NCBI RefSeq assembly: GCF_003334385.1
Contig: NZ_QOWN01000008.1
Reading direction: 5' to 3' (one strand)
DNA from: Escherichia coli
GTDB lineage: Bacteria > Pseudomonadota > Gammaproteobacteria > Enterobacterales > Enterobacteriaceae
DNA length: 64,000 nucleotides
Under the pieces are notes generated by a model. It searched no databases. It was not told where the DNA came from and saw only the letters and a program-made list of their open reading frames with translations. Position numbers and translations under genes: made by a program. Shown one piece after another: positions 1 through 8,356 of the stretch. Numbering within the stretch: the stretch's first letter is position 1; every line of letters starts with the position of its first letter.

Positions 1-30
1 ATCGTGAGAGTAATTCATCGGCACGTTAAA

Positions 31-666
31 TCATATCAGGCGTAATACCACAACCCTTAAGTTAGCGCTTATGGGATGAAACCCCGCTTTCAACGGTTGA
101 ATACCGTGATAAAACAGCCGCGATTCACCGCCCCATACCACCACATCGCCATGTTCCAACAACAAACGTTTGAGCGGATCATTTCGTTTCAGGCCGCCAA
201 ATTGAAAAATCGCGGGTAAGCCCAGAGAAACAGAAACAATTGGCGCGCGCAGATCCGGTTCGTCTTTATCCTGATGCAGCGACAGTTTCGCGCCAGGAGC
301 GTAGCGGTTGATAAGACAAGCATCTGGCTGGAAATCTGGATAGCCCGCCGCCGTAGCCGCACGTTGACATAAATTATGAAAACTCTGTGGCATGGCGGGC
401 CACGGTTTATTTGTTTGCGGATCAATGGGCGAATAGAGATAACCTTGCCGATGGGTCGTCCAGCCCAGATGCCCACAGTTGGTCATCGCCACCGACATGG
501 TATATCCCCCGGGGGTGACCATCTGGCGAAACGGCGACTGGCTGGCAACGTCATTAATATCGCGGATCAGTTGCTCCGCAGCGTTAAAAGCAAAACGCCG
601 TAAAATTACCGCACCAGCCGCCAGTGGCTCTTGCCACGGTTCAGCATCGGCAAACAGATCCAACAT
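31..666 (-). CDS. alkB: AlkB Fe(II)/2-oxoglutarate-dependent DNA/RNA demethylase; the last ~18 codons differ from the canonical AlkB C-terminus
   Basis: Translation MLDLFADAEPWQEPLAAGAVILRRF... matches AlkB through the HxD...H iron ligands (SLHQDKDE, LFYHGIQP); start overlaps ada stop; C-terminus after GFHP diverges (see findings). Confidence 0.85.
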   Translation of the reverse strand: MLDLFADAEPWQEPLAAGAVILRRFAFNAAEQLIRDINDVASQSPFRQMVTPGGYTMSVAMTNCGHLGWTTHRQGYLYSPIDPQTNKPWPAMPQSFHNLCQRAATAAGYPDFQPDACLINRYAPGAKLSLHQDKDEPDLRAPIVSVSLGLPAIFQFGGLKRNDPLKRLLLEHGDVVVWGGESRLFYHGIQPLKAGFHPISANLRVVVLRLI

Positions 667-1730
667 TACCTCTCCTCATTTTCAGCTTCGCGGCGCAGCA
701 GTTGCGCTTTACGCGACACGCCCCAGCGGTAACCGGAAAGTGTGCCATCACCACGGACCACCCGATGACAGGGTATTATGATAGCCAGCTTGTTGGCGGC
801 ACAGGCGCTGGCAACGGCCCGTACCGCTTTCGGTTTGCCGATGGCGTTAGCCAGTTGCTGATAACTGACGGTTTCACCGCAAGGTATCGTGCGCAGTGCC
901 TGCCAGACTTGTTGCTGAAAAGCAGTGCCGCGAATGTCCAGCGGTAACGTCAGCGGCGTATCGCGTTGATTGAGGCTGGCGATCACTTCACGCACATGTT
1001 GCTGAAACATCAGATCGGCAGGCGCGTTGTCGGCAGCGGGAAACATCTGCTGCAACTCGCTGATTAGTGTCGCGTCATCATCGCCCAGCAATATCGCGCA
1101 AATCCCCCGCTCGCTTTCTGCCACCAGGCAACGACCCAGCTCACAATCAGCCAGCGCGTAACGCACCGCCAGATTTTCGCCACCGTGACGGAATTGTTTA
1201 GCCGTCATGCCCAGCGTTTCGTCAGCTTTGCGATAGTAACTGCTGCTGTCGGGGAATCCGGCGTTAAGAATAGACGTCGTCACGCTCTCCCCTTTCGCCA
1301 GCGATTCGCGCAAACGGCGAGCGCGCCAGGCCTGTTGCCAGGCTTTAGGCGTCATTCCGGTAGTCGCTTTAAACAACCGATGTAGATGAAATGGACTCAT
1401 CGCCACCTGGTCGGCTAAGGCTTCCAGCGTTACAGGCGTTTCCTGTTCCAGCAGTCGACACGCGTGGGTGATTTTATCCAACCGATGTTGCTGGGCATTG
1501 GCTTTTTCTGGCTGACAACGTTTGCAGGGGCGAAAGCCAGCGGCGAGTGCCTCGCTGGCATTTGCGTAGAAGGAGACGTTTTCCCGCAAAGCATGTCTGG
1601 CGCGGCAAGACGGACGGCAAAAGATGCCTGTGGTACGCACGGCGAAAACGAATTCGCCGTCGGCATTCGGGTCGCGGGCTAAGACAGATTGCCAGCGTTG
1701 ATCGTCAGTTAAGCATGTGGCTTTTTTCAT
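666..1730 (-). CDS. ada: Ada bifunctional transcriptional regulator / O6-methylguanine-DNA methyltransferase
   Basis: 354-aa ORF; N-terminal Cys-rich methylphosphotriester domain (FCRPSCRARH...CKRCQP), C-terminal PCHRV methyltransferase motif; operon with alkB. Confidence 0.95.
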   Translation of the reverse strand: MKKATCLTDDQRWQSVLARDPNADGEFVFAVRTTGIFCRPSCRARHALRENVSFYANASEALAAGFRPCKRCQPEKANAQQHRLDKITHACRLLEQETPVTLEALADQVAMSPFHLHRLFKATTGMTPKAWQQAWRARRLRESLAKGESVTTSILNAGFPDSSSYYRKADETLGMTAKQFRHGGENLAVRYALADCELGRCLVAESERGICAILLGDDDATLISELQQMFPAADNAPADLMFQQHVREVIASLNQRDTPLTLPLDIRGTAFQQQVWQALRTIPCGETVSYQQLANAIGKPKAVRAVASACAANKLAIIIPCHRVVRGDGTLSGYRWGVSRKAQLLRREAENEER

Positions 1731-4300: not shown

Positions 4301-4408
4301 TAACATCAAGCAATAATAATTCAAGGTTAAAATCAATAACTTATTCTTAAGTATTTGACAGCACTGAATGTCAAAACAAAACCTTCACTCGCAACTAGAA
4401 TAACTCCC

Positions 4409-4501
4409 GCTATCATCATTAACTTTATTTATTACCGTCATTCATTTCTGAATGTCTGTTTACCCCTATTTCAACCGGATGCCTCGCATTCGGTTTTTTT
4501 T
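4409..4501 (+). ncRNA. micF: MicF antisense sRNA (regulator of ompF mRNA)
   Basis: 93-nt sequence GCTATCATCATTAACTTTATTTATTACCGTCATTCATTTCTGAATG...GGATGCCTCGCATTCGGTTTTTTTT matches micF as recalled; ends in hairpin plus T8; divergent from ompC. Confidence 0.9.

Positions 4502-8156: not shown

Positions 8157-8351
<195 letters not shown>

Positions 8352-8356
<5 letters not shown>

Follow-up and report, generated by a model that had tools for sequence, protein, structure and literature searches.

Classical loss-of-function alleles of alkB, such as alkB22 and alkB117::Tn3, are laboratory alleles. The insertion sequence IS186 reportedly has a target consensus consisting of a run of G, a spacer of 3–6 nt and a run of C, and is said to duplicate 10–13 bp of its target. 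According to papers citing SaiSree 2001, the lon promoter is a hot spot for this element: insertions at a single exact G-run/N6/C-run target have arisen there again and again, facing either way, in lineages independent of one another, and they inactivate the adjacent gene. Here we describe a locus in Escherichia coli in which IS186 has very probably transposed into the 3' end of alkB, truncating the gene. The alkB locus resembles the lon promoter in each of the respects just listed, the inactivation being in our case a probable one. The two differ in their consequences, since insertion at lon blocks the promoter whereas insertion in alkB truncates the coding region and makes an in-frame fusion tail, and also in the left half of the target, which has GG in alkB and four or more Gs at lon. 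In contrast to the two laboratory alleles, alkB::IS186 is natural and recurrent; by analogy with them, the same phenotype would be expected, that is, sensitivity to SN2 methylating agents such as MMS, with 1-methyladenine and 3-methylcytosine left unrepaired and ada intact.

The sequence analysed (hereafter the window) is a stretch of 64,000 nucleotides of E. coli chromosome very near to K-12. Between positions 74 and 64000 (63.9 kb) it differs from K-12 MG1655 by 21 substitutions and one 1-bp deletion, and it is 99.9% identical to the PSS-08-2 genome over 25 kb. The gene order on the minus strand, from the window start, is alkB (31–666), ada (666–1730), apbE and ompC. The upstream partner of alkB in the ada-alkB operon, ada, is an intact ORF of 354 aa on the minus strand (K-12 product WP_000710375.1), and the right flank that includes it has no differences from K-12 in its first 3000 bp. 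An Rfam scan placed MicF upstream of ompC (4408–4501, plus strand) and three naRNA4 elements of the REP type further along (8162–8238, 8276–8352 and 38531–38601, minus strand), all of them expected for a K-12-like region. The 1-bp deletion, at position 20184 (GCC, against GCCC in MG1655), splits yfaQ into two minus-strand ORFs of 233 and 314 aa (19473–20174 and 20177–21121), and reflects either a real frameshift or a sequencing error. The alpha-2-macroglobulin gene yfaS (21122–25741, minus strand) is an unbroken ORF of 1539 codons here, while the MG1655 gene is interrupted by a stop at codon 1373; the window thus comes from a relative of K-12 and not from K-12 itself.

Homology to K-12 begins at position 74 and continues with no differences over the next 3 kb. 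The sequence before it, positions 1–73, matches with 100% identity the end of each of the three IS186 copies resident in K-12 MG1655, and this exact match identifies the element directly as IS186 by K-12 nomenclature; the NCBI label for the same element is "IS4-like element IS421 family". The first six codons of the transposase gene insL, MNYSHD, occupy positions 1–18 of the minus strand, the same strand as alkB, and the remainder of the gene lies past the window edge. This reverse-complement translation is the start of the 370-aa IS421-family/IS4 transposase WP_001300563.1, a protein that scores 133 bits with the NCBIfam model transpos_IS4_1 (cut-off 115) and is also matched by Pfam DDE_Tnp_1. 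Positions 19–50 (minus strand) correspond to the leader that runs from the inverted repeat to the insL start, as delimited by exact identity to the K-12 copies and by reading the junction codon by codon. Positions 51–73 are the 23-bp terminal inverted repeat of the transposase-proximal end, CAACCCTTAAGTTAGCGCTTATG, which is the exact reverse complement of the characteristic IS186 repeat, CATAAGCGCTAACTTAAGGGTTG. One end of the element is visible in the window; in PSS-08-2, where comparison with the empty K-12 site delimits an element of 1338 bp, the repeats are perfect at both ends.

Immediately inside alkB, positions 74–83 (codons 195–198) are one copy of a 10-bp target-site duplication, GGATGAAACC. 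The empty site of K-12 has this sequence once, and all the simple-insertion carriers examined have it at both ends of the IS. The features by which IS186 is recognised are therefore all present, in part in the window and in full in the carrier genomes: the 23-bp inverted repeat, the sequence identity, a single DDE transposase of the IS4 family, and a length of ~1.34 kb together with the target duplication. In its length, its 23-bp inverted repeats, its 370-aa DDE transposase and its 10-bp duplication, the element of the carrier genomes agrees with the K-12 reference copies, and it differs from them only in location, none of the K-12 copies being in alkB. The first-pass annotation had suggested that alkB is broken a short way into its 3' end, at about position 72, by an insertion, a rearrangement or a contig join. 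The breakpoint can be read directly and falls exactly between positions 73 and 74, and the identity of positions 1–73 to the K-12 IS186 ends points to the first of these causes. The same annotation had located the responsible element outside the window; this is correct for most of IS186, which lies past position 1, but not for its terminal 73 bp.

The last base of the IS supplies the third base of the Pro198 codon, so that on the alkB strand the junction reads ...TTT CAT CC/C ATA AGC GCT AAC TTA AGG GTT GTG GTA TTA CGC CTG ATA TGA, with the slash at the breakpoint. The resulting alkB'::IS186 fusion ORF (31–666, minus strand) encodes 211 aa: residues 1–198 are identical to K-12 AlkB (window 74–666 plus the one IS base) and residues 199–211, ISANLRVVVLRLI, are encoded by the IS. 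The native protein of K-12 has 216 aa and ends LTIDCRYNLTFRQAGKKE, with R204, N206 and R210 within this tail. These sequences bear out the earlier description of an ORF that follows AlkB and then diverges, and of the native tail and its numbering; the new tail, however, is not of 18 codons as had been stated, since 13 codons and a stop stand in place of 18 native codons. The stop codon TGA (33–31) lies 12 nt upstream of the insL ATG (18–16), on the same strand. In both remaining frames the IS end runs into a stop within four codons, so there is nothing special about the fusion frame. With IS186 inserted the other way round, the tail has 19 residues, ISANLRVEPSEECDASVPR, and the fusion protein 217 aa.

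We propose that a copy of IS186, a member of the IS4 family, inserted at GAGT[GGATGAAACC]CCGC, and that staggered cleavage of this target would have given rise to the 10-bp duplication. The window would then hold the outermost 73 bp of the transposase-proximal end, and past position 1 we would expect the other ~1265 bp of the element, followed by another copy of the duplication, the 21 codons cut off from the end of alkB, and yojI. Translation of alkB would pass Pro198 into the inverted repeat of the IS, add 13 foreign residues and terminate shortly before insL.

When the fusion tail is aligned in register with the solved structures of AlkB, position 204 happens to remain an arginine, while N206 is replaced by valine, T208 by leucine and R210 by leucine: the motif R204-x-N206-L-T208-F-R210 reads R-V-V-V-L-R-L. 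The first-pass annotation had considered Arg204, Asn206 and Arg210 all missing from the new tail, and this is so for the latter two only. The C-terminal beta-strand motif R204-x-N206-x-T208-x-R210, which serves in 2-oxoglutarate binding and forms part of the lining of the active site, is no longer complete in the fusion, and the loss of N206, T208 and R210 strongly suggests inactivation. The iron-binding triad HxD...H (H131, D133 and H187) is kept entire in the 211-aa ORF. Conservation was assessed in 89 homologues less than 90% identical to K-12 AlkB, obtained from a search of 1.84 billion representatives. Among them R204 is conserved in 93%, N206 in 82%, L207 in 75%, T208 in 88%, F209 in 64% and R210 in 97%, compared with 93% for H187. 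The residues that the fusion has at positions 206–210 (V, V, L, R and L) are each found in at most 2% of these homologues, and the one at 210 in none. The Pfam domain 2OG-FeII_Oxy_2 extends through residue 210 in native AlkB.

R204 forms a salt bridge with the C5 carboxylate of 2-oxoglutarate (PMC7467159), and Arg210 has been presented as a residue of the substrate pocket that defines the family (PMC8508711). Nucleic-acid oxygenases share the second arginine, which sits beside the Fe(II) site (PMC3985658, PMC8508711, PMC3175000); its equivalent is found in all structurally characterised members and may help in oxygen activation (PMC3985658). In the Fe(II)/2-oxoglutarate dioxygenase fold, the tail swap affects the last core beta-strand, whose second half is exchanged for IS-encoded residues, and the fusion protein would most likely lack proper 2-oxoglutarate binding or oxygen activation. 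Judging from the sequence, the fusion allele is very probably null or severely impaired, and 1-methyladenine and 3-methylcytosine would then be expected to escape oxidative repair in this strain, with ada intact.

The alternative that survives best is that the insertion is real, but the fusion keeps useful AlkB activity and is a near-neutral polymorphism. This would fit with the retention of H131, D133, H187 and, by chance, Arg204, with the conservative nature of the tail substitutions L199I, T200S and D202N, and with the hydrophobic character of the tail, which could still form a beta-strand; the allele also persists on ~196 public contigs, and the curated AlkB model still gives the fusion 360 bits. 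We nevertheless regard it as unlikely. R210, which becomes leucine, is the most conserved residue of the region, above H187; N206, L207 and T208 are replaced by residues that are rare among the homologues; and both C-terminal arginines have been assigned to cofactor binding and oxygen activation (PMC7467159, PMC3175000, PMC3985658). One carrier, SCU-104, has in addition gained a premature stop in alkB', the nonsense codon W89*, which is its sole difference from K-12 in 3 kb and is consistent with the decay of a dead gene.

A loss of AlkB function, if correct, would not be apparent from current annotations. With the NCBIfam AlkB equivalog model NF011930 the fusion scores 359.9 bits and the native protein 380.1, against a cut-off of 267. 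Because it passes this cut-off and has nearly the native length (211 or 217 aa versus 216), the fusion is annotated as intact, although the NF011930 score is no indication of activity. An intact alkB gene is called in 4 of the 5 RefSeq genomes with the window's orientation and in all 6 with the opposite one. The exception, SCU-104, is flagged in RefSeq only because of its extra stop codon. In every source (RefSeq, UniRef and ENA) the fusions carry the plain AlkB label ("DNA oxidative demethylase AlkB").

We then looked at the locus in other genomes. In a megablast search of window positions 1–700 against 5,426 complete E. coli genomes, five genomes aligned from position 1 and six from position 51, and nearly all others, K-12 included, only from position 74. 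A query spanning the junction (1–146) gave exactly five full-length matches among the same genomes. The six that match from position 51 do so because both terminal repeats are identical and IS186 is inverted at the same base. Thus IS186 is observed at exactly this base of alkB in 11 of the 5,426 complete genomes (~0.2%), five times in the orientation of the window and six times in the opposite one. We rejected the possibility that positions 1–73 are a normal or common alkB 3' allele, as they are joined to alkB in only 5 of these 5,426 genomes.

In the five genomes with the window's orientation, the transposase annotated by RefSeq as IS4-like, IS421 family abuts alkB, and its far side is followed by a 69-bp fragment of the alkB C-terminus, yojI and mqo. 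Four further assemblies that encode the exact 211-aa protein have the same gene order. All these nine assembled genomes with the junction of the window present directly the structure yojI, 69-bp alkB remnant, IS186 of 1338 or 1339 bp, alkB' and ada, and all have the 10-bp duplication GGATGAAACC. The element of PCN061 is of 1340 bp, compared with 1338 or 1339 bp in the other simple-insertion carriers, and the IS186 elements at the alkB site are 0–2 positions apart from one another. A look-up of the exact 211-aa protein gave a consistent picture: every assembly that spans the region has ada, alkB', transposase, yojI and mqo, and several drafts end 33–94 nt beyond the alkB' stop, which is what one would expect of a multicopy IS interrupting the assembly. 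Overall, fusion alleles were found on 99, 42, 30, 16 and 9 public contigs (~196), the 99 being those with the exact 211-aa protein, from many projects. In several IS186 copies, including the alkB copies of PSS-08-2, ETEC1749 and PCN061, the transposase gene is annotated as frameshifted by 1-bp indels; these are either inactive copies or homopolymer sequencing errors.

One of the 11 complete genomes departs from this structure. In VG48B2 (NZ_CP128584.1, 2690–4000; opposite orientation), IS186 joins alkB' to a truncated gene of the DUF5682/yehP region. Its element has no target duplication, the left flank being GCCGGGGAAATCGCC and the right flank GGATGAAACC, which implies secondary recombination between two IS186 copies; the rearrangement is probably an inversion of ~100 kb. 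A similar event could be supposed for the window, in which case the IS186 end at alkB would mark one edge of an inversion or deletion mediated by two copies of the element, and yojI and the alkB remnant would not adjoin it; the window ends 73 bp into IS186, and the junction on the yojI side falls beyond it. We consider this improbable, given that the five complete genomes and the four further assemblies sharing the orientation and the junction of the window are simple insertions, with the duplication intact and yojI beyond, and that VG48B2 has IS186 in the orientation opposite to the window's. By comparison with these nine genomes, a simple insertion is very likely also the structure past position 1 in the genome of the window.

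The carriers also differ from one another in the sequences that flank the element. The nearest flank polymorphisms among them are at 19 bp on the yojI side and at 111 and 123 bp on the alkB side, and when flank haplotype is counted together with orientation, the 11 complete carriers fall into at least 8 classes. The 10-bp duplication is identical in every complete carrier with both junctions intact, VG48B2 being without it. Between ETEC1749 and PCN061 the flanks show no difference (0/2900 and 0/300), yet IS186, inserted at the same base and with the same 10-bp duplication, faces opposite ways. The window and VG48B2 are another pair with identical flanks and opposite orientations of IS186. Opposite orientations on identical flanks mean either two separate insertions at the hot spot within a single lineage or an element that can flip in place. 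Taken together, these data are most simply read as repeated, independent insertion at one exact position, and the alkB site is a recurrent hot spot of IS186 in unrelated E. coli lineages and in both orientations. A single ancestral insertion spread by recombination was also considered and is disfavoured, as carriers already differ at flank SNPs no more than 19 bp and 111 bp away from the IS, and both orientations are found on identical flanks.

The choice of target is in line with what is seen at other insertions. The three IS186 targets of K-12, which constitute an unbiased sample, are GCGG[GGATCACTCC]CCGC, GCGG[GGATTACTCC]CCGC and CCGG[GGATAATTCC]CCGG. The alkB target, GAGT[GGATGAAACC]CCGC, shares with them a GGAT-N4-CC/CCG core (the slash marks the right edge of the bracketed sequence), and its left G-run, GG, is weaker. 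Similar IS186 targets were found in cynR, pmrD, a glycosyltransferase gene and a DUF2543 gene, a biased sample in that these came to light through the similarity of their flanks to the window. The pmrD insertion of a C600 isolate (NZ_CP167195.1) has an 11-bp duplication, GAGTAAATCCC, and lies a little outside the window's region, past its far end. At lon, the stretch that includes the promoter hot spot contains GGGGGAAACATCCCC. The lon-promoter segment (clpX-lon intergenic) lacks a contiguous match in 55 of 5,425 genomes (~1%), which is an upper bound for IS186 insertions there, compared with the 11 genomes with alkB::IS186. Our literature search found no mention of IS186 and alkB together. 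An IS186 insertion in alkB is nonetheless known in kind and matches the behaviour of the element at the lon promoter; only its location is new, and public genomes already contain such loci, some of them annotated in part.

The position of insL shortly downstream of alkB' raises the question of whether the insertion has regulatory consequences. In the most far-reaching version, alkB codons 195–198 would be a previously undescribed natural hot spot of IS186 that also places insL behind the Ada-inducible ada-alkB' message, so that alkylation stress would induce IS186 transposition. If this were true, alkylation damage would be left unrepaired through the loss of AlkB at the same time as IS186 transposition is switched on, forming a stress-coupled mutagenic module; we deem it a doubtful prospect, about as improbable as a rearrangement border at the window edge, and none of our computations speaks in its favour. 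Less probable still is that the recurrence itself results from selection or from a regulatory gain, either because the ada-alkB' transcript reads into insL or because losing AlkB is advantageous. The alkB' stop is indeed 12 nt upstream of the insL ATG and on the same strand, and the same site has been hit in at least 8 haplotype-by-orientation combinations. The orientations, however, are near balanced (5 versus 6 genomes) and so speak against a benefit tied to one of them, the fit of the site to the IS186 target pattern is enough to account for the recurrence, and the transposase is frameshifted in several of the IS186 copies. The predicted RNA structure at the alkB'-insL junction is unremarkable, with a minimum free energy of -25.7 kcal/mol compared with a mean of -23.6 for shuffled sequences (z = -0.66, not significant). 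Finally, that the junction is an assembly artefact, whether a chimera formed at a repeat or the result of faulty trimming of a contig end, is hardly credible. The window edge does lie inside a multicopy repeat, and drafts often break 33–94 nt after the stop of alkB', but five independent complete genomes have the identical junction together with the matching target duplication on the far side, and the exact fusion protein occurs on 99 contigs from many projects.

An IS186 insertion truncating alkB therefore remains our preferred reading of this locus. For the biology of insertion sequences it is a small and unsurprising addition, in which alkB becomes a second natural target, beside the lon promoter, that IS186 reuses with precision. 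For the organism, it means that the strain from which the window derives and its relatives are probably natural alkB-deficient E. coli in spite of the "intact" label given to their alkB genes, and that alkylation-repair capacity, when read from annotation, would be misleading for ~0.2% of the complete genomes and for ~196 public contigs.
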